DNA from: Candidatus Thorarchaeota archaeon
GTDB taxonomy: Archaea > Asgardarchaeota > Thorarchaeia > Thorarchaeales > Thorarchaeaceae
Reading direction: 5' to 3'
DNA: 12,590 bases
NCBI GenBank assembly: GCA_048882485.1
Contig: JBHLRP010000073.1
Location: 1 to 12,590 of the forward strand
Notes under the pieces: model-generated
Seen by the model: only the letters and a program-made list of their open reading frames with translations
Databases searched by the model: none
What the model was told of the DNA's origin: nothing
Made by a program: the position numbers and the translations under genes
Shown here: in pieces, positions 1 to 12,590 of the stretch
Position numbering within the stretch: the first letter of the stretch is position 1
How the letters are laid out: each line of letters starts with the position of its first letter

Positions 1-50
1 ATGAACTCTCTATATGCCGGAACTGCATCTAGGACCTCATCAAAATTCAA
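1..50 (-). CDS. 5' end of a CDS running off the window, possibly M14-family zinc carboxypeptidase (partial)
   Basis: Minus strand reads GGAGGA (SD)-tggactg-TTG AAT TTT GAT GAG GTC CTA GAT GCA GTT CCG GCA TAT AGA GAG TTC = MNFDEVLDAVPAYREF, open to the window edge. It resembles from memory the N-terminus (..xxPxYxxFxTVDEL) of prokaryotic M14-like peptidases. Only 16 codons are visible. Confidence 0.4.
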   Translation of the reverse strand, partial: MNFDEVLDAVPAYREF

Positions 51-191
51 CAGTCCATCCTCCGCTGGTTGATGCTCTGCATGCAGAAACACAAACCCTC
101 CTTATATTTGCGGAGTTTTATCTCGATTAGGCCACAAGCAAGACCGGAATCCTGATACGGTTTCTGGATATAGTCCACCCGGGAATATAGA

Positions 192-404
192 TTGATTGTA
201 GTCTATCTGATGGTGCTAGGCATCCTGATTGGACTGGCTTTCTATAGCTACATCCGTTTCATCCGAGCATCAGATCGACCTAGTTACCAACCGACTGAAG
301 TAAGTACCATGATTGGTGGCCGAGTGGAGCATATCACTACAGGAGCCGTACCCAAGCTTATGCCTCGTCACTTGATGAGTGAGTCGGAACGGGATGAAGA
401 GTAG
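192..404 (+). CDS. small single-pass membrane protein, hypothetical (70 aa)
   Basis: TTG-start ORF with an N-terminal hydrophobic helix (IVVYLMVLGILIGLAFYSYI), then basic residues and a polar tail ending in acidic ESERDEE. It fills the gap between neighbours. Confidence 0.6.
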   Translation: MIVVYLMVLGILIGLAFYSYIRFIRASDRPSYQPTEVSTMIGGRVEHITTGAVPKLMPRHLMSESERDEE

Positions 405-429
405 CAGCTCAAGCAATGGCTCCCAATGT

Positions 430-441
430 GAGAAGTGGTAG
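430..441 (+). repeat. intergenic direct repeat copy (GAGAAGTGGTAG, one AAG unit shorter)
   Basis: Matches the 4533 and 11650 copies with a 3-nt deletion. Its flanks (cagctca...atgt upstream; atg..ccatt..tctgaat downstream) also resemble those of the 4533 copy. Confidence 0.6.
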
Positions 442-487
442 ATGCTCCATTGATTTAGTTTCTGAATCCTTCAGTGGTTTTTCAAGG

Positions 488-763
488 CTAATCATCTGAC
501 CAATCTCCTAAGGATGTGTCAGCTAATGATTTTCTCTTCTGTCTACTCATGCGATACAGAATGACACTCAAAAGCATCGGCATCAGCACCATCAGGACTA
601 TCAACATCAGAATATTATCCATAGTGAGGGGCGAATATGGTGCCAGAATGGATTGTACTACGGCCATGAGCATAAAGACAGACACAAAAGCGCAGCATAT
701 GGAACATCCTCTATACATCACTCTGAGTGTCGCGTCCAGGCTTTCTCCGCTTCCCGTGGCCAT
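488..763 (-). CDS. small two-TM membrane protein, hypothetical (91 aa)
   Basis: ATG start with GTGGGA upstream. Two hydrophobic segments (CAFVSVFMLMAVVQSIL; ILMLIVLMVLMPMLLSVILY) followed by the basic cytoplasmic tail RMSRQKRK. Confidence 0.7.
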   Translation of the reverse strand: MATGSGESLDATLRVMYRGCSICCAFVSVFMLMAVVQSILAPYSPLTMDNILMLIVLMVLMPMLLSVILYRMSRQKRKSLADTSLGDWSDD

Positions 764-881
764 GTCAATCCCACATCAATAGATTCTCCGCCTTTCAGAT
801 AGAAATTGTGGTTTCAAAGAAGATGGCTCTAATCTTAATTCTAATATGACATGCAATCCATGGTTGCCCCAGGAGTCCATT

Positions 882-1199
882 ATGCAACTACGAAGAATGA
901 AGATAACCGTAGTACGAAGGTACAGTCCAGAAGAAGTGTTTGGACATCCAATGACTCAGTCCTCGTCAGGTAAAACGATACCGGTCTGCCAATTCTTCGA
1001 AGACGGACAGGAGTTCATTGCTGATAACAGCTTCACGATGCCTGAAGGTTTCTGTGGATGGGCTTGGAGGGACTTGACTGTCCGATTCACTAAATTCGAC
1101 CTAGTCGATATGGATTGGCCTGGTCCAAATGTGACGTATGTAGCATGTGGGGACGGCGTGAGGCCAGTCATTTTTCGACTGGAGAAGCTTGATGATTGA
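882..1199 (+). CDS. TIGR04076-family protein (small Cys-containing, probable metal-binding)
   Basis: Family hallmarks: KITVVR, C-x-x-F-x-x-G-Q-E-F, P-x-G-F-C-x-W-A-W, and C-x-D-G-x-R-P-V-x-F-x-L-E at the C-terminus. Start moved from 846 to the in-frame ATG at 882 because AGGAG lies at 871-875. Confidence 0.8.
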   Translation: MQLRRMKITVVRRYSPEEVFGHPMTQSSSGKTIPVCQFFEDGQEFIADNSFTMPEGFCGWAWRDLTVRFTKFDLVDMDWPGPNVTYVACGDGVRPVIFRLEKLDD

Positions 1200-1233
1200 T
1201 CTACGTCATGGAAGCGATTCACAGAAGGCGTTC

Positions 1234-1253
1234 GAAGAGAGCGATAACGGGTG
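1234..1253 (+). repeat. degenerate intergenic direct repeat copy (GAAGAGAGCGATAACGGGTG)
   Basis: Ungapped alignment to 11651-11670 gives 11/20 identities, and every mismatch is a transition, so the purine/pyrimidine pattern is identical. Confidence 0.35.
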
Positions 1254-1323
1254 ACCGGGTATCGACGAGCTTATGTGAAACTCCATCACTCTCATGTCAG
1301 CGCTTGATTTGGGGATTTAGATT

Positions 1324-4300
1324 ATGTACGAGCACTTCGAACCGGTCGACCGAGTCTTCGTTGACCGTGAGGAGCATCTTGATTGGATGTCAGATGCGTT
1401 ACAGCGCTGCAAAGAACAGAGTGTTGTTCTTCATCTTCGCGGCATTGGCGGGATTGGAAAGAGCTCACTCTTGGACCACTGGAAGAACACGATTGACGAT
1501 ACTGTCTATCTTGACTGTGAGAGGTACACTGAGTTCTACGACCGTTTGAATGTCATTGCTAAGGGAGCTGTCCACCTTGGCGTGAATCTGCAGCGTTTCG
1601 ACGTTCTGTGGCAGATTCGACTGCGGTTTGTCGAGGGACTAGAACCGGTCAAAGAGGAGGGCCGAGAATGGGCCAAGGAAATCGTGATGGCAATACCGTT
1701 CATCGGCTCTCTGGCAAGTATCGGCAGTGCTATTGGTGCAGTTGGGGCCAAGGTGGGTCCAAAACTGAAAAGAAAATATGGTGAGCTGGGAGAATGGCTC
1801 CAAGCTCGCCTTGGTACGGACTACATCCAGCGACTGCTCGAAATACTCTGGAAGGAGCCAAGACGAGCGGAGTTTCTCTTTCTTGATGCGTTGTTGGAGG
1901 ACTTGAGCAAACGCAAGACCTTTGAGAGGCCGATCGTGTTCCTGCTGGATCACTCAGAGCGTGTCGACAGCGAAACATGCCGATGGCGATATCGTAGTCG
2001 AGATATCACTGAAACCGAGCTCTGGTATGTATTCTTGACTTCACTCCCCAATTGTGTCGGAGTAATGGCAAGCAGACAAGCCCTGACTGAGGAAGCTAGA
2101 GAGGAACTCGAGATTGAGGAGACCGAGCTCACAGAGCTTGGGAGAGAGAGTTGCGTCGAGCTCCTTGAAAAGCGTGGGGTGACGGAACGTGAGATTCAGG
2201 ATAGAATCGTCAGTGTGAGTGGTGGAAACCCCTTTGTGATAGGAGCGATGTGTGACGTTGCAGATTCTGCCAACCTCTCCCTGAATGATGTGGAAGACCT
2301 GCGGGCCGATACCCTCGAAGCAGTGCGGCTTAAGACATGGAGAAGACTCTTCAGCGAAACACAAGATCTCCTGCGACTAGTAGAAAGAGCAGGCCTTCTC
2401 CCCTCTTTCAATCGAAGGACCATGACTATCATTGCACCAGACATGAGAACAGACCACTGGGATAGACTGATTCGCCTGAGTTTTGTCAAGTACAGAGATG
2501 ACGGTACTTGGGTGCTGCACGACCTTGCAAAGGAGCTAATTGTTGCCGAACTTGGCCCACGGCTTCAGGAATCGACGGATGAGGTGGCCGAACTTCTCGA
2601 GAAGGCTTCGACAGATGAGTCGGACTACACCCTTCTAGGATTGGCTCTATCAATACTAGCACTAGCCGAAGAGAGTGACGCAGCGGCAAGGCTCGGCTCC
2701 ATGGTTTCGGACCTTATATGGAGCAACGATTTCTCTGATGCTCTAACACTTGTTGACGCCGCGCGAATCGACACGAAGAGCGGCCAAGCGGTCATACAGG
2801 GGCTGAGAGGAGGCGTTCTGTGCCAAATGGCCAGGGTTGCTGATGGTGAGCATGCGTTTCGGGAGGCACTTGAGATATTTCGAGAGCTCGAGGAGAGGAG
2901 CCCTGATGATTTCCTAGTGCATTTTGCACGAACGCTGCATTTCCTTGGTTTATTGCTCACAAGAACTGGGAGAAACTCGGAGGGCATTGCCTCTTTCCAG
3001 GAGTCGCTAAAGATCTTCAGGAGCCTTAATGAGAATACACTGGGTTTCCATCCACAGGACATTGCTTGGACTCTCCAAACCTTCGGCTATGCCCTGATGA
3101 AAGTCCACAGACTAGAAGAGGGCGAGAACGCATTTCGAGAGGCACATCGCCTATTCAAGAAGTCCATCCCGACAGCATCATACAACCCCATGATAGGTAT
3201 AACACACTCTCTCCGAACCATAGGTATAGTGCTATGCCTCACAGGTAGGCCTCTAGAGGCTGAAGAAATTCATCGAAACGCTCTCAAAATCTATAGGGAA
3301 CAGATTAACAAAGGAATGGATGACGTTTCTCTCCTACGTCACCTCTGCTTCTGCCTTACCACATATGCAGACATACTGAGAATGATGGGCAGGCCATATG
3401 AGGCGATAGGTCCCCACCAAGAGGCAGTGCAATTGGCCAGAGATCTAGTCAAGAAGGAGCCAGAGGCGCTCGCGGTTTTGGTCCCATTCACTCTCGCCGG
3501 CTATGCGCTACCACTAAGACAGATTGGAAGATACTCTGAGGCGGAGGAGGCTTATCTAGAGTCGATTGAGATATCCAGACAACTGGTGGAAGAAGCGCCT
3601 GATTTATTCTTGAAATTCCTCGCCGTGACTCTCGTTGATTTCGCAGTTCTTCTCCGACAGACTGGCAGAGTATCAGAGGCCGAAGAGAAATATCGTGAGG
3701 CGCTCAGAATCCATAGAGAACTTGCCGCCAAGGAGCGGGGTCAGCACGACTACGAACTGCCTTGGAATCTGAACAATCTCGCAGTTCTTCTCAGAAAGAC
3801 TGGGCGGTCAGCAGAAGCCGAAGAGACGTACAGAGAGGCGCTTGGCATCGCGAGAGATACCAGCCGAGAAGCACCGGAGGCCATCTTTCTCATTGAGCCT
3901 GTTGCCACCATTCTCAGCAACCTCGCAGTTCTTCTTAGACAGACTGGTAGAATATTAGAAGCCGAGGAAGCCATTCTAGAGGCGCTCGAGATCAGAAGAC
4001 AACTTGCCCAGAAGTCTCCCGAATACTTCCTGCATCGTGTTGCCACGACGCTCAACAATCTCAGTGTCCTGTTGGCCGAATCAGGAAGGATGGTGGAGGC
4101 TGAGGAGGCGTTAAGAGAAGCACTTCAGATTCGCAGAAACATTATTGAGAAGTCATCTGGCCTGTACCAACCTTCTGTTGGGTCAACTCTCAACAACCTC
4201 GCTGTCCTTCTCAAGCGATTGGGTCGAACATCTGATGCAGAGAGCGCATATCGTGAGGCGATTGATATTGGTGAAGAGCTAGTATCAAGGGCACCGACTG

Positions 4301-4485
4301 TCTATAAACATGAACTAGGGAGAACCCTCAGTAACTACGCGCTTCTCCTCTCAGAAATTGAAAGCACAGATACACTCCAGAAGATCATGACGAGATTAGA
4401 GAGGCTTGGCATCAAGAGCTTGCCAGAGAGTGAGGAGTGGTCAGAGGAAGAGGAGGAAGAGGCTTGGGCGCCAGGGGCAGCCTGA
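1324..4485 (+). CDS. STAND-class P-loop NTPase (NB-ARC/AAA_16-like) with C-terminal TPR array (1053 aa)
   Basis: FVDREE pre-Walker motif, Walker A GIGGIGKS, Walker B IVFLLDHSE, sensor-1-like VGVMASR, GGNP (GxP) motif and winged-helix LHD motif. Then many 46-48 aa TPR-like repeats (LNNLAVLLRxTGRxxEAEExYREALxI) and an acidic tail. Confidence 0.9.
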   Translation: MYEHFEPVDRVFVDREEHLDWMSDALQRCKEQSVVLHLRGIGGIGKSSLLDHWKNTIDDTVYLDCERYTEFYDRLNVIAKGAVHLGVNLQRFDVLWQIRLRFVEGLEPVKEEGREWAKEIVMAIPFIGSLASIGSAIGAVGAKVGPKLKRKYGELGEWLQARLGTDYIQRLLEILWKEPRRAEFLFLDALLEDLSKRKTFERPIVFLLDHSERVDSETCRWRYRSRDITETELWYVFLTSLPNCVGVMASRQALTEEAREELEIEETELTELGRESCVELLEKRGVTEREIQDRIVSVSGGNPFVIGAMCDVADSANLSLNDVEDLRADTLEAVRLKTWRRLFSETQDLLRLVERAGLLPSFNRRTMTIIAPDMRTDHWDRLIRLSFVKYRDDGTWVLHDLAKELIVAELGPRLQESTDEVAELLEKASTDESDYTLLGLALSILALAEESDAAARLGSMVSDLIWSNDFSDALTLVDAARIDTKSGQAVIQGLRGGVLCQMARVADGEHAFREALEIFRELEERSPDDFLVHFARTLHFLGLLLTRTGRNSEGIASFQESLKIFRSLNENTLGFHPQDIAWTLQTFGYALMKVHRLEEGENAFREAHRLFKKSIPTASYNPMIGITHSLRTIGIVLCLTGRPLEAEEIHRNALKIYREQINKGMDDVSLLRHLCFCLTTYADILRMMGRPYEAIGPHQEAVQLARDLVKKEPEALAVLVPFTLAGYALPLRQIGRYSEAEEAYLESIEISRQLVEEAPDLFLKFLAVTLVDFAVLLRQTGRVSEAEEKYREALRIHRELAAKERGQHDYELPWNLNNLAVLLRKTGRSAEAEETYREALGIARDTSREAPEAIFLIEPVATILSNLAVLLRQTGRILEAEEAILEALEIRRQLAQKSPEYFLHRVATTLNNLSVLLAESGRMVEAEEALREALQIRRNIIEKSSGLYQPSVGSTLNNLAVLLKRLGRTSDAESAYREAIDIGEELVSRAPTVYKHELGRTLSNYALLLSEIESTDTLQKIMTRLERLGIKSLPESEEWSEEEEEEAWAPGAA
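3641..3990 (+). repeat. DNA-level tandem TPR-coding repeats
   Basis: TCGCAGTTCTTCT-x-xGAxAGACTGG recurs at 3641, 3779 and 3923 (spacing 138 and 144 nt). TATCGTGAGGCG occurs at 3691 and again near 4249. Confidence 0.8.
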
Positions 4486-4532
4486 AATACACTCGAGTTG
4501 TCACAGCTCATATGACATTCTCTAGCATGTCA

Positions 4533-4550
4533 GAGAAGAAGTGGTAGTGG
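4533..4550 (+). repeat. intergenic direct repeat copy (GAGAAGAAGTGGTAGTGG)
   Basis: The first 15 nt are identical to 11650-11664, and the copies share 17/18 identity over 18 nt. Confidence 0.8.
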
Positions 4551-4610
4551 ATGAGTGACCATTTCATTATCTCTCTGAATTTGAGTCTTGTACCAGTTCT
4601 GTAGTCCATA

Positions 4611-5552
4611 CTAACTGGATTTGTAGAGATCTGTGCTCAGGTACTTGACGCCTGAATCAACCAGCAACGTGACCACTGTGGCACCAGGTCCCAGTCTCTT
4701 GGCTATTCTGATTGCTGCCGCTACATTTGCTCCTGATGAGGTGCCTGCGCAGAGCCCCTCTTCTCTCGCCAGCCGTCTTGCCATCGCCTTGGCATCCTCA
4801 GTTGGAATGCGAACAATCTCGTCGACTAGACTACTATCCCATAGGGGTGGGAGAAATCCTATCCCAATGCCTTCTATATCATGTGAACCACTCTCCCCTC
4901 CCGACAACACGGGGGACTCGTCCGGTTCAACGGCGACAATTTTCACCCGTGAATTTCGTTCTCTCAATGTTCTCGAGGTACCAATAATGGAACCGGCAGT
5001 CCCAGCCACATGCACAAAGGCATCGACTAGGCCATTCGTCTGTTCCCATATTTCTTCACCCAATTGGAGATAGCCAGACACATTGTCCTTATTGTACAGT
5101 TGATTTGTCCAGTAAGTACCTGGTTCATCACTCAGCTCTCGGGCGGTTTCTATCATCTTCTCGATTAGTTCTTTCCTAATCCCAAGACCCTCGCTTGGAA
5201 CAATTGTGACTTCTGCACCAAGAGCCCTCATATAGTCTAGCTTCTCTTGACTAAACGCATCAGAGGAAACGACACGAAAACGATATCCTTTGATAGCGCA
5301 GATGAATGCCAGCGATGTTCCTGTGCTGCCTCCAGTATATTCCACCACTGTGCCACCAGGACCCAACTTCCCGTCCTCCTCTGCTTTTTCAATCATGGCT
5401 TGAGCCATGCGATCTTTCATACTTCCCGTGGGATTCTCCCATTCTAGCTTGACTAGTACTCTACCATGGTCTTGAGGAACCACCTTTTTCAACTGCACTA
5501 AGGATGTATTCCCAATCGCATCCACGGCATCTTCGGCAATCTTCACGCCCAT
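4611..5552 (-). CDS. PLP-dependent cysteine synthase (CysK/CysM/CBS) family protein with non-canonical motifs (313 aa)
   Basis: IGNT.LV start, KLEWENPTGSMKDR (PLP lysine), GTAGS phosphate loop, AVEP, HDIEGIG, EGLCAGTSSGAN and DSGVKYLST. The substrate loop is TGGST instead of TSGNT, so cysK is not assigned. Confidence 0.9.
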   Translation of the reverse strand: MGVKIAEDAVDAIGNTSLVQLKKVVPQDHGRVLVKLEWENPTGSMKDRMAQAMIEKAEEDGKLGPGGTVVEYTGGSTGTSLAFICAIKGYRFRVVSSDAFSQEKLDYMRALGAEVTIVPSEGLGIRKELIEKMIETARELSDEPGTYWTNQLYNKDNVSGYLQLGEEIWEQTNGLVDAFVHVAGTAGSIIGTSRTLRERNSRVKIVAVEPDESPVLSGGESGSHDIEGIGIGFLPPLWDSSLVDEIVRIPTEDAKAMARRLAREEGLCAGTSSGANVAAAIRIAKRLGPGATVVTLLVDSGVKYLSTDLYKSS

Positions 5553-5581
5553 ACCTCGCGGGCCTAATGTTTCTCCTGTGC

Positions 5582-5587
5582 TATATA
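5582..5587 (-). promoter_or_regulatory. putative archaeal TATA box for the cysteine-synthase-like gene
   Basis: TATATA about 30 nt upstream of the ATG at 5552, a spacing consistent with a leaderless or short-leader archaeal transcript. Confidence 0.4.
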
Positions 5588-5689
5588 CTGTTCGAATCTG
5601 GCTCTAATTTACGGAGCAGCTAGACAGTAGTTCTGTTTTTTGCACCAGTTAGTTGATGAATGACTAGAGTGAATTCCTACCAAGTATCT

Positions 5690-6193
5690 CTAGTGCCCGG
5701 TCCTAAGTCTGTGCACTATTAGGCCCACATACATCACCACGCCAAGAACCCCCATCCAAACGCAGAGGCTATACACCTCCATTGAGAGAGCGGGATTGTA
5801 TAACGGATTCGTTGTCAGCGGATAGAATGGACGGATATCACTGTATAACGGAGAGTCCAGTAAGACATGGAGTATGGTGCCCAGGACACCTGCAAGCACG
5901 AACAGCCTTAGACTCGTCCTGCTATCTGTTTCCAGCAAGAGAATCTTGTAGAGTGGATACAAGTATCTCTCAAGAAGTAACATGATATATCCAATCACAA
6001 GACTCACAAGGAACGCCAGTAGGAATGTATGGAAGTATCCATGTAACGGATATTCCAGTCCGAACATAATCACTAGGAATGGCTCAACATCAAGCATTAC
6101 ATTGGCTAATATGAAGGTAGGAGTGTGCATGTACTCTCTCAGAGGAAGCCCAAGGCACACTGCTGGACCGAGATGAAAGGGCGTGAATGGCAT
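5690..6193 (-). CDS. membrane-bound metal-dependent hydrolase (YdjM/DUF4184-like, 167 aa)
   Basis: MPFTPFH N-terminus, DVEP, HGYFHT, HVLLD and PFYP motifs in a multi-TM protein. Start moved from 6274 to the ATG at 6193 because GGAGTGA lies just upstream. Confidence 0.8.
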   Translation of the reverse strand: MPFTPFHLGPAVCLGLPLREYMHTPTFILANVMLDVEPFLVIMFGLEYPLHGYFHTFLLAFLVSLVIGYIMLLLERYLYPLYKILLLETDSRTSLRLFVLAGVLGTILHVLLDSPLYSDIRPFYPLTTNPLYNPALSMEVYSLCVWMGVLGVVMYVGLIVHRLRTGH

Positions 6194-6342
6194 TGAAAAC
6201 TCACTCCTTGACTCATCGATGATGCAATCCACAGCAAATGTGGCTTGCGCTCTCAAATACCTTCCTTTAGGCAAGTCTCTGTACCATTATGATGGTGAAT
6301 GGTCAACGAGTACGGATGGTTTCAAATCAGGAAAGATGAATG

Positions 6343-6358
6343 GAAGTGATAGCGAGTA
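6343..6358 (+). repeat. intergenic direct repeat copy (GAAGTGATAGCGAGTA)
   Basis: 14/16 identical to 11655-11670, and both mismatches are G>A transitions. Confidence 0.6.
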
Positions 6359-6384
6359 TGATGGGTTGCATTCTAAAGTCCCTA

Positions 6385-9234
6385 TCACCTACTCTCTCGC
6401 TTTCTGAGTCCTACCCAAAGCATCACAACGATGACAATAGCTCCTACTCCCATGCCGATGATGAACGTCATCAGAGGATCAGGGTGTTCCGTTGGAACAA
6501 TCGCTGAGTTTGATGTTGTAGTCGTGGTGGTCGTAATTGTAGGAATAACCTCAACTAAAATTGCAGCCCATATTGTATTTCCATAGATATCATTGACGTA
6601 CACCCTTAATCCGTATATTCCAGGCTCAAGAATGCCTATAGTGCGAACTCGTCCAGTCCAATCGATTGTGAAGTGAACTGTGTCATCGACCCACCACTCC
6701 GCAATACCGGATAGGTCTGTTGCGTTGAAGTCACAGATAAAACGTGTACCATATACCAGTGTCTGATTCTCAGGCTGCTCACTCCATATTGGCGGCTTCG
6801 TGTCGACCACCGTCACAGTGAAGATTGTGCTGATGATATTGTTTGATGTATCATTCACCCAAACCTGCACAACATAGGTTCCCACCTGTAAGATTTCTAT
6901 TGCCATCATCAATCCACCCTTATCAACGGTGAAGTGCATGGTGTCATTAACCCACCAACTATCTAGCAATAGATCTGTGGCATTTAGGTCAAAGACGAAG
7001 TCGTTTCCATATTCAACAATCTGATCTTCAGGCACCTCAGTCCACACTGGTGATGTAGTGTCGACCACCGTTACTGTGAAGGTTCCATTGAGTGTGTTCC
7101 CCGATGTGTCATTCACCCACACCTGTATTCCATAGACACCTGGAGGCATGATTCCAGCAGTTGAAACTACTCCATCGGCATCAACAGCAAAATGCACGGT
7201 GTCGTTAAGCCACCACGTGTCTAGTAAGAAATCCGTTGCATTCAGCCTGATTACAAAGCTCTCTCCAACCTCAATAGTTTGGTTTCTGGGTGGCTCTATC
7301 CATTCAGGACGTGTAGTATCAATTACTGTCAGAGAGAAGACTTCCGATAATGTGTTACCTAGTGTATCATTGACAAAGACCTGTAGTCCGAACACTCCTA
7401 GAAAAAGGACTGTGTTATTTGCAATCCTTCCAATTTGGTCGATATCGAAATTCACTGTGTCATTCAGCCACCAAGTATCAAGGCCAGGTGGCGGTGCAGT
7501 TGCATTCAAGTCGTAGAGAAAATCGTCGCCAAGCTCTAGTAGCCTGTTGGCAGGAAGCTGCAACCAACTTGGAGGCGATCCAGGTGGTAGCATGAGAGGG
7601 TACAAGTCAACATTGCTGAGAAACGTGTAGGGAATATCTCCTACCCCATCCTGATTCGCGTCAGGGCCACTATAGTCTGACCAGTAGTTGTGGTCAAAGA
7701 CATTGCTAATTGCATTATCATAACCATTGAGGGGGGAGTTATATGCAAAGACGTTCCACCGAATGTAGTTGTTCGCAGTATCTGAAAAGAGAACGATGCC
7801 ATTGTCATTGCCGCTGAACGTGTTCTGAGTCAGGTTATTATTGTTGGCCATTGTGGCGTGAATGCCATAGTTATTACTTGTGCAAGTGTTGTTAATCATA
7901 GTGTTGTTGTTCGCATTCATAAGAAGTACTCCATAGTTGCTGTTGCTGCAGGTATTGTTCTCAACAGTGTTGAAGCTAGATGATTCAATAAAGATGTCAT
8001 GTTGGGAGGCACCCCTACAGGTGTTGTTGACTAGAAAGTTAGAATCGGACCACCGTAGATAGATGCCGTTGTTTCCACCGCCAGTAGAATTATTGTTGGC
8101 AATGATGTTAGAAGTGGATGAATCTAGATTGATGCCATCCCAGCTATTACTACGGCACAGATTGCCAGTCACATTGTTAGAATCTGAAAAAGAGATTGTT
8201 ATGCCATTACCATTGCTGGAGCATGTGTTGTTGGCGATAGTATTGGAAGTGGATGCATCCAGATAGATACCATAAGCATTGTTACTCGAGCAGATGTTGT
8301 CAGTCACATTATTGAAATTCGCGAAATATAGCCGAATCCCATCTTCATTGTCGTTACAGATGTTATTGATCACACTGTTGGAGTCGCCTTCTATGTAGAT
8401 ACCTAAGTTGCTACTAATGCAAGTGTTATTCGTCACTGTATTGGTGTTGGATCCTTGTATGTGGATGCCAAAGCTATTGCCAATACAGGTGTTGTTACTC
8501 ACAGTGTTGGATCCAGCCCCATCTACCCAGATTCCTAATGTGTTACCATTACAGGTATTATTAGTCACAATATTGAAACTTGATGAGAATAGTTCGATAC
8601 CATCGCTGTTGCCATTACAGGTGTTGTTGATTATTGTAATGGAGCTTGACATATCTATAGAGATGCCGCTAGTGTTGATGTTAGAGGTATTGTTGACTAA
8701 AGTGATTGAATCACTCATCTGCATTAAGATGCCTATAGTATTGTCAGTGCAGTTGTTGTTGTCTACAATATTAGAACTGGCTTCCAACAGATAGACACCA
8801 TAGCTGTTTCCTGTAATGGTATTATTGATGAGTGTACCATTACTGACATTGAACAAGTAGATTCCTGCGCCTATAGTGGCACCAGTGAGAATGCAGCTGC
8901 GGACTATGAAGTGCACCTGTGTGTTGCTGATAGAGATACAGTCTCCCACTATCCCGCCACGATCAATCTCCAGATTCTCAATAATGAACGGATTTCCTAC
9001 TGTGCCATTGCCAGCCCACCCCTCGGCAGACGCAGTCGAATTGAAGTTGCTGTCGCCATTAATACTGATTGGCCCATGAGGAGTGCCTGAACCAACTCTA
9101 ATTCCTTCTTCTGGTCCTGAACTAAGCGCCGTTGATTGATGAATCGTTCCACCAAGACTCGCAACAGACGCCATGGTCAATAAGAGGGTCACTAATGAGC
9201 CTAAGACCCAGCGAGTTCCAGTCTTTCCATGCAT
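6385..9234 (-). CDS. cell-surface protein: signal peptide, NosD-like right-handed parallel beta-helix, four Ig/cadherin-like repeats, Thr-rich linker, C-terminal TM anchor (949 aa)
   Basis: Hydrophobic leader and HGPISINGD cap. About 22-aa repeats GIxLxxSxxNxIxNNTCxxN, then NYWSDY..DANQDGVGDIPY. Four 86-88 aa repeats (PxW..P.NQ..E.G..F..DLNATD...WW.NDT..F..D..G...G.YG.QVWVNDT.GN), TTTTTT, a TM segment and RKRESR. Start moved to 9234 because GAGGAG lies 9 nt upstream. Confidence 0.85.
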   Translation of the reverse strand: MHGKTGTRWVLGSLVTLLLTMASVASLGGTIHQSTALSSGPEEGIRVGSGTPHGPISINGDSNFNSTASAEGWAGNGTVGNPFIIENLEIDRGGIVGDCISISNTQVHFIVRSCILTGATIGAGIYLFNVSNGTLINNTITGNSYGVYLLEASSNIVDNNNCTDNTIGILMQMSDSITLVNNTSNINTSGISIDMSSSITIINNTCNGNSDGIELFSSSFNIVTNNTCNGNTLGIWVDGAGSNTVSNNTCIGNSFGIHIQGSNTNTVTNNTCISSNLGIYIEGDSNSVINNICNDNEDGIRLYFANFNNVTDNICSSNNAYGIYLDASTSNTIANNTCSSNGNGITISFSDSNNVTGNLCRSNSWDGINLDSSTSNIIANNNSTGGGNNGIYLRWSDSNFLVNNTCRGASQHDIFIESSSFNTVENNTCSNSNYGVLLMNANNNTMINNTCTSNNYGIHATMANNNNLTQNTFSGNDNGIVLFSDTANNYIRWNVFAYNSPLNGYDNAISNVFDHNYWSDYSGPDANQDGVGDIPYTFLSNVDLYPLMLPPGSPPSWLQLPANRLLELGDDFLYDLNATAPPPGLDTWWLNDTVNFDIDQIGRIANNTVLFLGVFGLQVFVNDTLGNTLSEVFSLTVIDTTRPEWIEPPRNQTIEVGESFVIRLNATDFLLDTWWLNDTVHFAVDADGVVSTAGIMPPGVYGIQVWVNDTSGNTLNGTFTVTVVDTTSPVWTEVPEDQIVEYGNDFVFDLNATDLLLDSWWVNDTMHFTVDKGGLMMAIEILQVGTYVVQVWVNDTSNNIISTIFTVTVVDTKPPIWSEQPENQTLVYGTRFICDFNATDLSGIAEWWVDDTVHFTIDWTGRVRTIGILEPGIYGLRVYVNDIYGNTIWAAILVEVIPTITTTTTTTSNSAIVPTEHPDPLMTFIIGMGVGAIVIVVMLWVGLRKRESR
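6544..7575 (-). repeat. four tandem 86-88 aa extracellular beta-sandwich repeats
   Basis: Conserved Trp codons of the PxW motif at 7564-7566, 7300-7302, 7042-7044 and 6784-6786 (spacing 264, 258, 258 nt). Confidence 0.85.
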
Positions 9235-9406
9235 AGGTGATTTCTCCTCAGCCGCGATGGATGCGTTTGAGGGTTGTCCATGCGTGTCCAAATACCAGAA
9301 TTCAATGCAGCATTTCTTTCAGCGGTTTCCTTCGCAACTTCCTCAATATTTCGTCTTCTTCCACTTATTAATGAGCACTGAGGAAATCGCAACGCTGTTT
9401 CTGATT

Positions 9407-9428
9407 GATGAAGTGGCTACGGGTAGAT
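9407..9428 (+). repeat. intergenic direct repeat copy (GATGAAGTGGCTACGGGTAGAT)
   Basis: 18/22 identical to 11652-11673 without gaps. It lies between divergently transcribed genes. Confidence 0.6.
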
Positions 9429-9573
9429 GGCGGGCTTCGGAAATCTTATGTCGAAACCCGGCACATAGTTCTAGTTCAGAGTGTTGTCATAGCTATGGCA
9501 CAGCTTCAAAGCTCTCTGTTCGTCTGAGAATGCAGCGACTTCTTACGTTCCAACACTAGTAGGAGGAGAATAT

Positions 9574-11607
9574 GTGGGAAGAAACCAACTGACCGGCACC
9601 ATATTGATAGTGGTTATGATTGTGGGAGCTGGCTCTGTCCTTGCCTTCGCCACTCAGCCTACTAGACCACCAATTGACTCGTATGTATATGAGATGGAAC
9701 CATATAATGGGTACTTTATCGTGTCTATCGACCCTCACTATCATTATGGCGACGATGGAAGTATTGCAGTGATTGAACAGGTCTACGAAACCCTGTATAC
9801 CTATCCATGGGGAAGCGGCGAACGTGGAGACCATCCTGAGAGCACTCCAACCATACCACTCTTGGCTGCGGGTCCACCGACGATATCCGAGAACGGTACT
9901 GTCTACACTATAGAACTGAGGCAAGGCGTCACCTTCCATGATGGGACTCCATTTAATGCCAGCGCAGCAGTGTGGAACTTCAAGAGAGCCATGAAGATGG
10001 GTCTGCGTTATGCCGAACTGATCAAGGGTGGGACGGAAATGAAGGATGTTGCCCGGGCATACGGCTCGACTTCAGATGAGTTCAAGGATGTGTTTGAAGC
10101 CTGGGAAGCCACAGACGCAGTAGAGGCTAGCGGTACATATGAAATCACCTACAGACTGGAAGAAGCGGTCGCATTCTTCATTCCAGTAATGACCGACCCA
10201 ACTTTCTGCATGATGAGCCCTACCTTCACCGAGAAACATGCAGTGAATCATAGCGATTCATTCGGAGTAGAATATGGCGAGATATTCACCTACATGTGCA
10301 ACCACACTTGTGGGACTGGCCCCTACAAGGTGGTTGAGTTTAAGAGAAGTGAGCACGTCCGCATGACACTCAACCAGGACTACTGGAGAGCTGAAGCGAC
10401 TGAGGCTACGATTGCACCTCCACTCTATGCTGGCTCGATAAGGGAGATTTGGTTCAAGGCTAACGAAGACCAGACAAGCATGAACCTGAACCTCAAGAAT
10501 GGAGTCGCTGACGACACTTACTGGCCGTCATCGCATGCAGACGAGATCTATGACAGCGTCACACTTGGTAGCAAAGACCCTAACATCTTCTTCAGAACCG
10601 GTGGCGTGTCCTCTTACATGAGTGGTTTCCGGTTCCAGATGGGAATAATGAACTGGACTATCGGGTCGAACACCTTTGAGATTTACTCCCCATTCCACTG
10701 GAGAGGACTCAGGAAGGCCGTGGCGTATCTCCTCGACTACGATGCCTATATCCAATCGGTAACCAGTGGCTGGAACGTCAAGGCACAAGGACCGATTCCG
10801 GCCTGGATGCCTTACCATAACTCGAGTCATTGGACTGAGCATTATGAACCAGAGATTGCAGTCGGGTATTGGAATGACGCCATGCAAGATCCCGATTTCG
10901 TGGCTGTCATGAACGCAATCAGGGGCAAGATCCTACTCCCCTACCATGTCTTCCAGAACCCCCTAGAACTGATCTCGTTGCTGCTGAAGGACGGTTTCGA
11001 TGCCATGAAACTACTGCCTGAGATGAACACCACGGGATTGGACTACGAACCAATGATTACGCCTGCGCCCTCCTATATTGGCAGTCCTCGTGAAGAGCCG
11101 CTGCTACTGTCAGATCAATGGATTGCTAGGTACGCTGACCCTCATGACCTCGTATTCTACTACCTACACTCCAGTGGTTATTATGCGCCGTCGCAGGGCT
11201 ACAACAACAGTGTGATGGACGACTTGATCATGCAAGGCAGGGCTGAAGCCGACCCAGTTGTCAGACAAGGCATCTACAACCAAATTCAGGAACTAGCTGC
11301 CTACGCCCAACCATTCCTGGGGCTGTACTCCCCCAAGGAGTTCACCACGTTCGGAGCATGGCTGAAGGGCATTGGCATGAGATACCAGCCAATGTCCTCG
11401 TACTACTACATCTACCACGTGTACAAGGATTATACGACAACGGACACGACGACCACACCCGGAGATCAGACCACAACGGGCACAACAACCTTCACATCGC
11501 CAGAGCTTCCCGACATCGGCTCACTAGTGCCTATCTACTTTCTAGCAGGACTCGGATGGGCAGTGGTGGTTGTTATTCTCATTGCATTTCTAAAGTGGGA
11601 ATCTTGA
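9574..11607 (+). CDS. ABC transporter substrate-binding protein, family 5 (peptide/nickel type), with N-terminal TM, Thr-rich linker and C-terminal TM (677 aa)
   Basis: IDP, VYETL, PLLA, YTIELRQGVTFHDGTPFNA, GTGPYKV, LRKAVAYLLDY, WIARYADP, YNNSVMDDLI and RQGIYNQIQ motifs of SBP_bac_5. SD AGGAGG at 9561-9566 and a GTG start. Confidence 0.9.
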   Translation: MGRNQLTGTILIVVMIVGAGSVLAFATQPTRPPIDSYVYEMEPYNGYFIVSIDPHYHYGDDGSIAVIEQVYETLYTYPWGSGERGDHPESTPTIPLLAAGPPTISENGTVYTIELRQGVTFHDGTPFNASAAVWNFKRAMKMGLRYAELIKGGTEMKDVARAYGSTSDEFKDVFEAWEATDAVEASGTYEITYRLEEAVAFFIPVMTDPTFCMMSPTFTEKHAVNHSDSFGVEYGEIFTYMCNHTCGTGPYKVVEFKRSEHVRMTLNQDYWRAEATEATIAPPLYAGSIREIWFKANEDQTSMNLNLKNGVADDTYWPSSHADEIYDSVTLGSKDPNIFFRTGGVSSYMSGFRFQMGIMNWTIGSNTFEIYSPFHWRGLRKAVAYLLDYDAYIQSVTSGWNVKAQGPIPAWMPYHNSSHWTEHYEPEIAVGYWNDAMQDPDFVAVMNAIRGKILLPYHVFQNPLELISLLLKDGFDAMKLLPEMNTTGLDYEPMITPAPSYIGSPREEPLLLSDQWIARYADPHDLVFYYLHSSGYYAPSQGYNNSVMDDLIMQGRAEADPVVRQGIYNQIQELAAYAQPFLGLYSPKEFTTFGAWLKGIGMRYQPMSSYYYIYHVYKDYTTTDTTTTPGDQTTTGTTTFTSPELPDIGSLVPIYFLAGLGWAVVVVILIAFLKWES

Positions 11608-11649
11608 GTACAAAGTACTGGAGCAATCTGAAATGCTGGAGAGGGTTTT

Positions 11650-11673
11650 GAGAAGAAGTGGTAGCGGGTAGAT
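11650..11673 (+). repeat. best-preserved intergenic direct repeat copy; minus strand ATCTACCCGCTACCACTTCTTCTC, tRNA-iMet 3'-end-like
   Basis: Reference copy of the repeat. The minus strand contains CCCGCTACCA followed by a pyrimidine tract. Confidence 0.8.
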
Positions 11674-11729
11674 TGCAAAAGCGTTTAACGGAAGACTTAA
11701 CTCAAATACCTCTAAAATACGGATTTGAC

Positions 11730-11747
11730 CTATTAGATATCTAATAG
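11730..11747. promoter_or_regulatory. perfect 18-bp palindrome CTATTAGATATCTAATAG, putative operator
   Basis: CTATTAGAT/ATCTAATAG are exact reverse complements. The site is about 110 nt upstream of the second SBP gene. Confidence 0.6.
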
Positions 11748-11856
11748 TCTAGAGCTCCACCTGTCATCGGAGAACGGAAGCCCGTCACCCACTTTGTTCT
11801 GTGAAGTCCTAGGTCAGTAGAAACTAGGAGATTGGTAGCCAAGAGGGAGGAGAATA

Positions 11857-12590
11857 ATGGGAAGAAATCAAATGATTTCCATAGTAATGATTGTAATCGT
11901 GATTATGGGAGTTGGGGTTGCCTTCTTCTTCATGCCTCAGCAGACCAGACCCGCTCCTGATGTGTATGTCTATGAAACGATAGACAATCCCCTCCATTTC
12001 GACCCACACATTGCCTACGACAGAGGGAGTGGTGAGATAATTGATCAATGCTACGAAACGCTCTATACCTACCCGTGGGGAAGTGGCGAACGTGGGGGCT
12101 ATCCTTTAGTTGAACCGACCGTACCACTCTTGGCCGCAGGTCCGCCGACCATAACCGAGAACGGCACCGTCTATACGATAGAACTCAGGCAGGGCATCAC
12201 GTTTGCGGACGGGACTCCATTCAATGCCAGTGCAGCAGTGTGGAACTTCAAACGAGCCATGAAATTGCACCGCCTCATTGACTATACTATCGCCGAACCG
12301 ATAAAGGGTGGACTGGCAGTGGTAGCCGCTATTAGTTCCGGCCCGACCTCACCTGAGTTCATCGCTGCGTTCGAGACTTGGGACGCTACAGACGCAGTAG
12401 AAGCGACCAGCACCTACGAGGTCACCTACAGACTGGAAAAAGCGGCTGCATACTTCATACCAGCAATGACCTACAACGTTGGCTGCATGATTAGCCCCAC
12501 ATTTGCGGAGAAGCATGCATCGACTCCTGGAGCCAAATACGGAGTGGACTACGGCGAGAAGTTCACCTACATGTACAACCACACTTGCGG
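11857..12590 (+). CDS. second family-5 ABC substrate-binding protein, paralogue of 9574..11607 (partial, runs off window)
   Basis: GGAGG at 11846-11850 and ATG at 11857. Translates MGRNQMISIVMIVIVIMGVGVAFFFMPQQTRPAPDVYVYETIDNPLHFDPHIAYDRGSGEIIDQCYETLYTYPWGSGERG...ELRQGITFADGTPFNASAAVWNFKRAM..., open to the end. Absent from the ORF track because it has no stop codon in the window. Confidence 0.9.
   Translation, partial: MGRNQMISIVMIVIVIMGVGVAFFFMPQQTRPAPDVYVYETIDNPLHFDPHIAYDRGSGEIIDQCYETLYTYPWGSGERGGYPLVEPTVPLLAAGPPTITENGTVYTIELRQGITFADGTPFNASAAVWNFKRAMKLHRLIDYTIAEPIKGGLAVVAAISSGPTSPEFIAAFETWDATDAVEATSTYEVTYRLEKAAAYFIPAMTYNVGCMISPTFAEKHASTPGAKYGVDYGEKFTYMYNHTC

Follow-up and report, generated by a model that had tools for sequence, protein, structure and literature searches.

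The DNA analysed here (the window) is the whole of a 12,590-nt contig, C73, from a metagenome-assembled genome (MAG) of a Candidatus Thorarchaeota archaeon (G000; GCA_048882485.1, 3.96 Mb, 157 contigs, 90.5% complete), in which a short direct repeat separates modules of one or two genes. Very probably, this repeat is the 3' end of the initiator tRNA-Met (tRNA-iMet) gene and its copies are the recombination junctions of a cassette array. Comparison with relatives, all of them MAGs (family set, n = 86 genomes), demonstrated the tRNA identity of the motif, its anchoring at the tRNA gene in relatives and the position of breakpoints at the motif.

The intergenic repeat corresponds to the tail of the initiator tRNA-Met gene

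Five clear copies of the repeat were identified in the window (430-441, 4533-4552, 6343-6358, 9407-9428 and 11650-11673), all intergenic and all on the + strand. A preliminary description of this DNA had reported these copies and a degenerate one at 1234-1253 as a same-orientation intergenic repeat; all were found where it had placed them, and a weak seventh was added at 5647-5668. A 10-nt core was exact or near-exact at 432, 4538, 6343 and 11655, and a 19-mer at 9410 matched with three mismatches. With at most one mismatch allowed, the 10-mer matched the window five times compared with 0.65 expected, a number reached in 0 of 200 shuffles; four of these matches were motif copies and the fifth (12316) lay inside the coding region of the second solute-binding protein (SBP) gene. 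The exact 10-mer occurred only 12 times in the 3.96 Mb genome, three of them on the 12.6 kb window contig. The 15-mer common to 4533 and 11650, which had been judged unlikely to arise by chance, was unique to the window contig, with no other occurrence in the genome. Finally, a 14-mer consensus taken from the tRNA genes of relatives, and so independent of the window copies, matched the window four times (up to two edits) against 0.115 expected from the rest of the genome (Poisson P = 6.6e-6); the remaining genome matches of this probe showed no extended match. The scan of the genome for clustering and strand bias suggested in the preliminary description thus revealed a motif that was rare elsewhere, with close copies confined to one strand of the window contig, whereas dispersed elements of the repetitive extragenic palindrome or miniature inverted-repeat transposable element type have many genome-wide copies on both strands.

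Two copies required evidence other than their score. The decayed copy at 1234-1253 was not supported by score alone, so the earlier call did not stand on that measure; it did stand on position, as better-kept copies occupy the same place before the same STAND leader in three genomes of the family (G066, G065 and G070), and this homology validates 1234-1253 as a copy. The candidate at 5647-5668 failed the score threshold, and its 10-nt lead-in and position matched those of a truncated copy in G064 (L021 ~10405-10425); it is likely a further decayed copy. The copies at 9407 and 11650 each lie upstream of one of two paralogous binding-protein genes, in regions that are themselves homologous; since the flanking units are paralogues, these two copies do not count as independent of each other.

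A 19-mer scan of the 86 family genomes revealed many near matches, which fell into two classes according to context. In the first class the core continued into a T arm and a CAT anticodon loop, and these matches were complete tRNA-Met genes in reverse complement; in the second class only the last 11-25 nt and the trailer were present. The tRNA found in the same genus (G064, L021 19400-19478; 59 bits to the Rfam tRNA model) possessed an A1:U72 pair and three G-C pairs closing the anticodon stem, which are established marks of archaeal initiator tRNA. Read on the minus strand, the motif comprised the acceptor 3' strand, the discriminator A, the encoded CCA and a pyrimidine-rich trailer of the CTTCTT type, and it agreed with the reverse-complemented tRNA end and trailer at 21 of 24 positions in an alignment of 20 copies from seven genomes, G000 among them, against two tRNA ends (alignment A2). 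The tRNA genes of G000 generally have an encoded CCA and similar trailers. An Rfam search of the window and the G064 locus returned the tRNA itself as the sole match. The repeat is therefore a displaced tRNA gene fragment in the sense of the Islander-type definition, and not the new kind of site proposed in the preliminary description, where the origin from the initiator tRNA-Met 3' end on the opposite strand had gone unrecognised. The 3' end of a tRNA gene is the classic attachment (att) site of tRNA-targeted integration.

Other identities of the motif were also considered. The end of a small open reading frame (ORF; E-K-K-W-stop) and read-through of the upstream gene were rejected on the grounds that the reading frames do not fit. 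A retroelement primer-binding site was rejected as well, since the copies include the trailer, which mature tRNA lacks, and the window holds no reverse transcriptase. A selected cis-regulatory, terminator or RNA-processing element, for example an RNA complementary to the initiator tRNA 3' end, would account for the motif being better conserved than any other block upstream of the two binding-protein genes, where the sequences have otherwise diverged, and for the distance of 22-60 nt between each copy, except that at 9407, and some stop codon. We regard this explanation as highly improbable: the orientation of the copies is independent of the flanking genes, the copies decay freely, and neither an Rfam match nor a fold was detected (DNA folds of five copies with flanks gave z-scores of 0.06-0.62 against shuffles, which also leaves no attC-like hairpin). 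Furthermore, the leader of the binding-protein genes occurs elsewhere in the genome without the motif, and a regulatory role leaves the shuffling of modules described below unexplained.

Modules are gained, lost and re-ordered at the repeat

The copies divide the window into the following features. The gene content of the modules (a membrane protein with a TIGR04076 protein, STAND-TPR, a cysteine-synthase-like enzyme and a hydrolase, a surface protein, SBP1 and SBP2) agreed with that given earlier.

1-429, no single strand: conserved left flank, with the 5' end of an M14 carboxypeptidase-like gene (~1-92, - strand) and a 70-aa ORF (192-404, + strand)
430-441, - strand (tRNA sense): tRNA-iMet 3'-end fragment, copy 1, without 7 nt kept in the G064 orthologue
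442-1233, no single strand: membrane/TIGR04076 module, with a 91-aa membrane protein (488-763, - strand) and a TIGR04076 protein (846-1199, + strand)
1234-1253, - strand: tRNA-iMet 3'-end fragment, copy 2, decayed, part of the STAND cassette
1254-4532, + strand: STAND (AAA_16) + TPR NTPase cassette, with a conserved 65-nt leader (1259-1324)
4533-4552, - strand: tRNA-iMet 3'-end fragment, copy 3, the variant accompanying the PALP module
4553-5646, - strand: module of the cysteine-synthase-like pyridoxal phosphate (PLP) enzyme (PALP; gene 4611-5552)
5647-5668, - strand: weak candidate for a decayed copy, with position and lead-in as in G064
5669-6342, - strand: YdjM-like membrane hydrolase module (gene 5690-6274)
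6343-6358, - strand: tRNA-iMet 3'-end fragment, copy 4
6359-9406, - strand: beta-helix/NosD-type surface protein module (gene 6385-9291)
9407-9428, - strand: tRNA-iMet 3'-end fragment, copy 5
9429-11649, + strand: solute-binding protein (SBP_bac_5) cassette 1, with a leader of ~130 nt
11650-11673, - strand: tRNA-iMet 3'-end fragment, copy 6, the best kept, with an exact 14-nt core
11674-12590, + strand: solute-binding protein (SBP_bac_5) cassette 2, cut by the contig end

Positions 1-77 of the window matched the final 77 nt of contig C55 exactly, so that the two contigs abut in the assembly graph, and C55 11914-19895 together with window 1-1226 was syntenic with G064 (84-95% identity). Within the window, G000 and G064 had three blocks in common at 90-94% identity (1-1226, 4531-5557 and 9410-11676), and four of the five inner block ends (1226, 4531, 9410 and 11676) lay within 8 nt of a copy; the last block, at 94% identity, had its left end in copy 5 and its right end at copy 6. 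The STAND cassette (~1254-4532), flanked in G000 by one copy on each side, was lacking in G064 and G066; in these genomes the TIGR04076 flank led directly into the copy preceding the PLP-enzyme gene, and a metagenome contig carried the same STAND-less joint (1200 to 4531). The YdjM-like hydrolase and beta-helix modules were absent from the G064 locus, and the YdjM-like module was found in G059 behind another motif copy. At the G064 locus, four binding-protein units, each preceded by a copy, stood in a row and were followed by the tRNA-iMet gene; the leader of SBP cassette 2 of the window differed from that of the G064 unit in the same place.

The order of modules also differed among relatives. 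To the right of the PLP enzyme we identified the YdjM hydrolase in G000, an SBP gene in G064, a STAND gene in G066, G065 and G061, and TIGR04076 in G058 (a 'single contig' that is a scaffold with N runs, for which gene order was taken from one gap-free piece only). The STAND gene was followed by the PLP enzyme in G000, by a binding-protein leader in G061 and by the membrane/TIGR04076 unit in G066 and G062, and the left neighbour of the membrane/TIGR04076 module was the conserved flank in G000 and G064 and a STAND gene in G066 and G062:C190. Unrelated modules (STAND, PALP, SBP and TIGR04076) thus occurred in at least four orders, joined always at the core. In each copy the right half accompanied the right-hand module and the purine run the left-hand module; the copy 3 variant, for example, stood beside PALP in G064, G066 and G058 irrespective of the left neighbour. 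The genus contains many STAND paralogues, and those on other contigs or scaffold positions had a copy 8-35 nt ahead of their conserved leader. Such variants moving with modules are the behaviour of a cassette that carries its own recombination site. The claim that the repeats are recombination scars rather than promoters or terminators is upheld by these comparisons, in which modules were present, absent or re-ordered and homology broke at the motif.

Public sediment and soil metagenome contigs provided 12 further joints against the window, six of them at copies (4531, 9419, 9421, 9424, 11649 and 11650). These contigs were placed at 90% likeness and stem partly from related populations, so that they count as further relatives and do not prove activity in a single strain. 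No circular cassette junctions were seen in the public contigs, which cannot show rare forms, so that this absence weighs neither for nor against such circles. Joints at which the match goes back were explained by the tandem paralogues among the binding-protein units.

The same data bear on the possibility that the copies are fossil scars of old integrations, with present variation arising only from homologous recombination, unequal crossing-over and tandem duplication between short repeats or paralogues. Four copies (430, 1234, 5647 and 6343) are decayed, and the binding-protein units form a tandem series of paralogues, 74-84% identical and with homologous leaders; both observations fit this explanation. 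A repeat of 14-24 nt is, however, short for homologous recombination, the joining of unrelated modules in at least four orders at the core would not be expected, and STAND paralogues elsewhere in the genus still have a copy before their leader. We therefore consider fossil scars alone to be quite unlikely.

Arrays are anchored at tRNA genes in several members of the family

Within the same genus, the syntenic array of G064 and G062 ended at the tRNA-iMet gene. In members of other genera (G043, G035, G027 and G046), fragments were located downstream of the tRNA and co-oriented with it. A 32.7 kb contig, G022:C42, contained ~20 co-oriented copies of up to 57 nt, and between them genes for hydrolases, transporters and LRR, TPR and beta-helix proteins and no integrase. 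Other tRNAs were involved as well: in G000, extra copies of their 3' ends, co-oriented and spaced 1-3 kb apart, were found for tRNA-Ala-TGC (four copies on C71, two on C132) and tRNA-Gly-CCC (five on C82, two on C103), and C20, C26 and C58 held two such copies apiece. G000 thus has additional cassette arrays.

A 12-nt copy of the tRNA-iMet 5' end was observed ~50 nt upstream of the gene in G043:C2 (L023 ~10345-10365), hinting at insertions on the 5' side as well.

Proposed mechanism and the search for a recombination enzyme

In the explanation we favour, the repeat is a leftover copy, on the minus strand, of the last ~11 nt, encoded CCA and trailer of the tRNA-iMet gene, and would act, or once have acted, as the site of recombination in a variable island anchored at the tRNA. 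Every one- or two-gene module would carry such a site, and modules would be inserted, deleted and re-ordered by crossing-over within the ~14-nt core, which would leave the purine-rich left part attached to the left-hand module and the right part attached to the right-hand one. The exchange would be site-specific and, because no recombinase is encoded in the assembly, would depend on one supplied in trans, for example the tyrosine integrase of a transient mobile element. Taken whole (tRNA-derived att sites, core exchange and a recombinase in trans), this explanation is fairly probable; the action of a site-specific recombinase in trans is, for its own part, a serious possibility that falls a little short of probable.

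Several observations weigh against it. A six-frame search of G000 revealed no match to PF00589 (Phage_integrase), PF16795 (archaeal integrase) or PF00239 (resolvase); in 14 control genomes the same searches matched 14, 3 and 12 genomes, respectively. PF00589 was absent from 57 of the 86 family genomes, including the array-bearing G064, G066, G062 and G022, and integrase loci of the same genus (G065, G060 with two, G068 and G058) had neither the motif nor a tRNA nearby. An intact tRNA-iMet gene was not found in the G000 assembly; as the gene is essential, we attribute this to an assembly gap. The copies at 9407 and 11650 could stem from tandem duplication alone. Finally, in G064 and G062 the tRNA gene occupies the + strand at the right-hand end of the array, with the fragments inverted relative to it and on its 5' side, a layout that simple serial integration does not predict.

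Comparison with G043 suggests how this layout may have arisen. In G043, a TIGR04076 gene with a copy, two more copies and the tRNA formed a normal downstream array, and the PLP-enzyme gene was the divergent neighbour of the tRNA-iMet gene. In the window genus the tRNA/PLP pair had the same orientation relative to the outer flanks, the array was inverted on the other side of the PLP gene, and additional cassettes had entered between the PLP gene and the tRNA. Inversion, or excision and re-entry, at att copies would give the 5'-side layout, and we infer that the array of the genus was inverted through a rearrangement of this kind.

Tyrosine recombinases of any kind were detected in only 29 of the 86 family genomes. 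No integrase was present in the window, C55 or the G064 locus, and the array, its flanks and the assembly yielded neither integrases nor fragments of them; the tyrosine recombinase for which a search of the flanks had been suggested was thus not recovered. To our knowledge, a genome without any tyrosine recombinase domain is unusual for archaea. MAGs often lack the plasmids, viruses and other mobile elements that could carry an integrase, and for this reason an integrase acting in trans stays compatible with these results. A XerA-type dimer-resolution gene was likewise not detectable in G000, nor in 57 of the 86 family genomes.

Candidates for the enzyme were evaluated and rejected. Integrases on contigs with tRNA-iMet pieces (G081:C24 and G014:C43), found either at a distance of 17 kb or as a weak fragment of 89 aa on the 5' side, could not be linked to these pieces. 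Viral contigs scanned for an attP-like tRNA-iMet end gave five matches; all were unrelated tRNA-Met genes that differed in sequence, and none was informative. A 151-aa ORF with a PD..ExK-like motif was located between the tRNA-iMet gene and the first fragment in G043 (L023 9659-10114) and G046 (C188:618-1070 and C229:1018-1470); this nuclease-looking ORF had no Pfam or PDB match, and was found in 9 of the 86 genomes and absent from the window genus.

The same tRNA-derived array could also form without an integrase, if a host or selfish nuclease cut the tRNA end or its copies and short-homology repair followed, or if an undescribed recombinase family were responsible. The lack of tyrosine and serine recombinases in G000, the lack of either in most array-bearing genomes of the family and the occurrence of arrays at several tRNAs within one genome are consistent with such a route. 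No candidate enzyme is linked to the arrays, however; the nuclease-looking ORF has the restricted distribution described above, and MAGs routinely miss mobile elements that could supply an integrase. We consider this route unlikely. Its broader form, in which integrase-independent gene capture would operate in Thorarchaeota, and perhaps in Asgard archaea, with one-gene cassettes tagged by tRNA tails and exchanged at many tRNA loci by an undescribed kind of enzyme, is similarly speculative and improbable.

Relationship to known systems

The insertion site was reused, the content varied among close relatives and tRNA-end repeats recurred, as in an additive flexible genomic island. The flexible genomic island fGI-2 of 'Ca. 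Methylopumilus', located at tRNA-Lys, is an additive island marked by repeats of the last ~20 bp of the tRNA (PMC10872708). The two resemble each other in that an island of accessory genes, variable in content among close relatives, is interrupted by recurring direct copies of a single tRNA gene's 3' end (PMC10872708). In contrast to fGI-2, the host here is an Asgard archaeon, the tRNA is an initiator tRNA, the modules are mostly of one or two genes, the array of the genus is inverted on the tRNA 5' side, and arrays occur at several tRNAs in the same genome. In Prochlorococcus tycheposons and other tRNA-targeted tandem accretion, partial tRNAs are left behind, newer elements push older ones inward and degenerate remnants are scattered (10.1101/2020.12.28.424599; Islander, PMC4383910). 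Scattered partial tRNAs and decayed elements are shared with our locus; the elements of those systems, however, carry tyrosine recombinases and replication modules and leave fragmented integrases in the islands, whereas no integrase, whole or fragmentary, was found here. The aloposons and HeimV1 of Heimdallarchaeum are large tRNA-integrating elements with integrases or giant genes (PMC8813620); they too use tRNA genes as integration sites in Asgard archaea, whereas the present arrays are stacks of one-gene modules.

With integrons, including the integrase-less CALIN arrays (clusters of attC sites lacking integrases), the locus shares rows of small cassettes that have their own recombination sites and are shuffled between relatives. 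It differs in lacking IntI and a common promoter and in having a linear tRNA-derived core. The integron-like platform envisaged in the preliminary description is not sustained: no intI, attI or hairpin-forming attC was found, and the cassettes face both ways with their own leaders. The locus is a variant of the tRNA-anchored additive island, neither an integron nor a new site class. What is unusual is the combination of one- or two-gene cassettes, an assembly in which no tyrosine or serine recombinase was detected, and an inverted array on the tRNA 5' side. In a limited literature search, we found no published description of tRNA-tail-bounded stacks of one-gene cassettes in Thorarchaeota.

Asgard archaea have large genomes with many acquired genes, and how such genes are taken up matters for models of eukaryote origins. 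The locus shows at nucleotide resolution how single accessory genes (a defence-type STAND NTPase, surface proteins and transport binding proteins) stack and swap at the initiator tRNA gene. If the enzyme were new, it would add a novel tool for recombination and define a gene-capture platform of a new kind; if it were an ordinary integrase on unbinned elements, the locus would retain its use as a marker, mapped with precision, for gene flow in these archaea. Integrase-independent capture, if true, would represent a functional analogue of the integron with an independent origin in the archaeal lineage closest to eukaryotes.

Leaders and internal repeats of the cassette genes

The leader of the first binding-protein gene (9431-9573) contained an imperfect palindrome at ~9485-9500 and also occurred, unaccompanied by the tRNA motif, at G000:C1:324972-325105 and many loci of the genus; this ~130-nt element may be a shared operator or 5' UTR element. 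The 65-nt STAND/TPR leader was conserved before dozens of STAND paralogues in the genus, and DNA matches began at 1259-1263 in many genomes. Comparison of the two binding-protein genes (9571-9580 versus 11858-11866) revealed one extra base in gene 1 directly after the ATG used by its paralogue, so that gene 1 must start at an overlapping GTG (9574) or have its first codons frameshifted. Lastly, the beta-helix gene contained internal repeat series of 258 nt and 66 nt at 6660-7480 and 7850-8850 (repeat families D2-D13).

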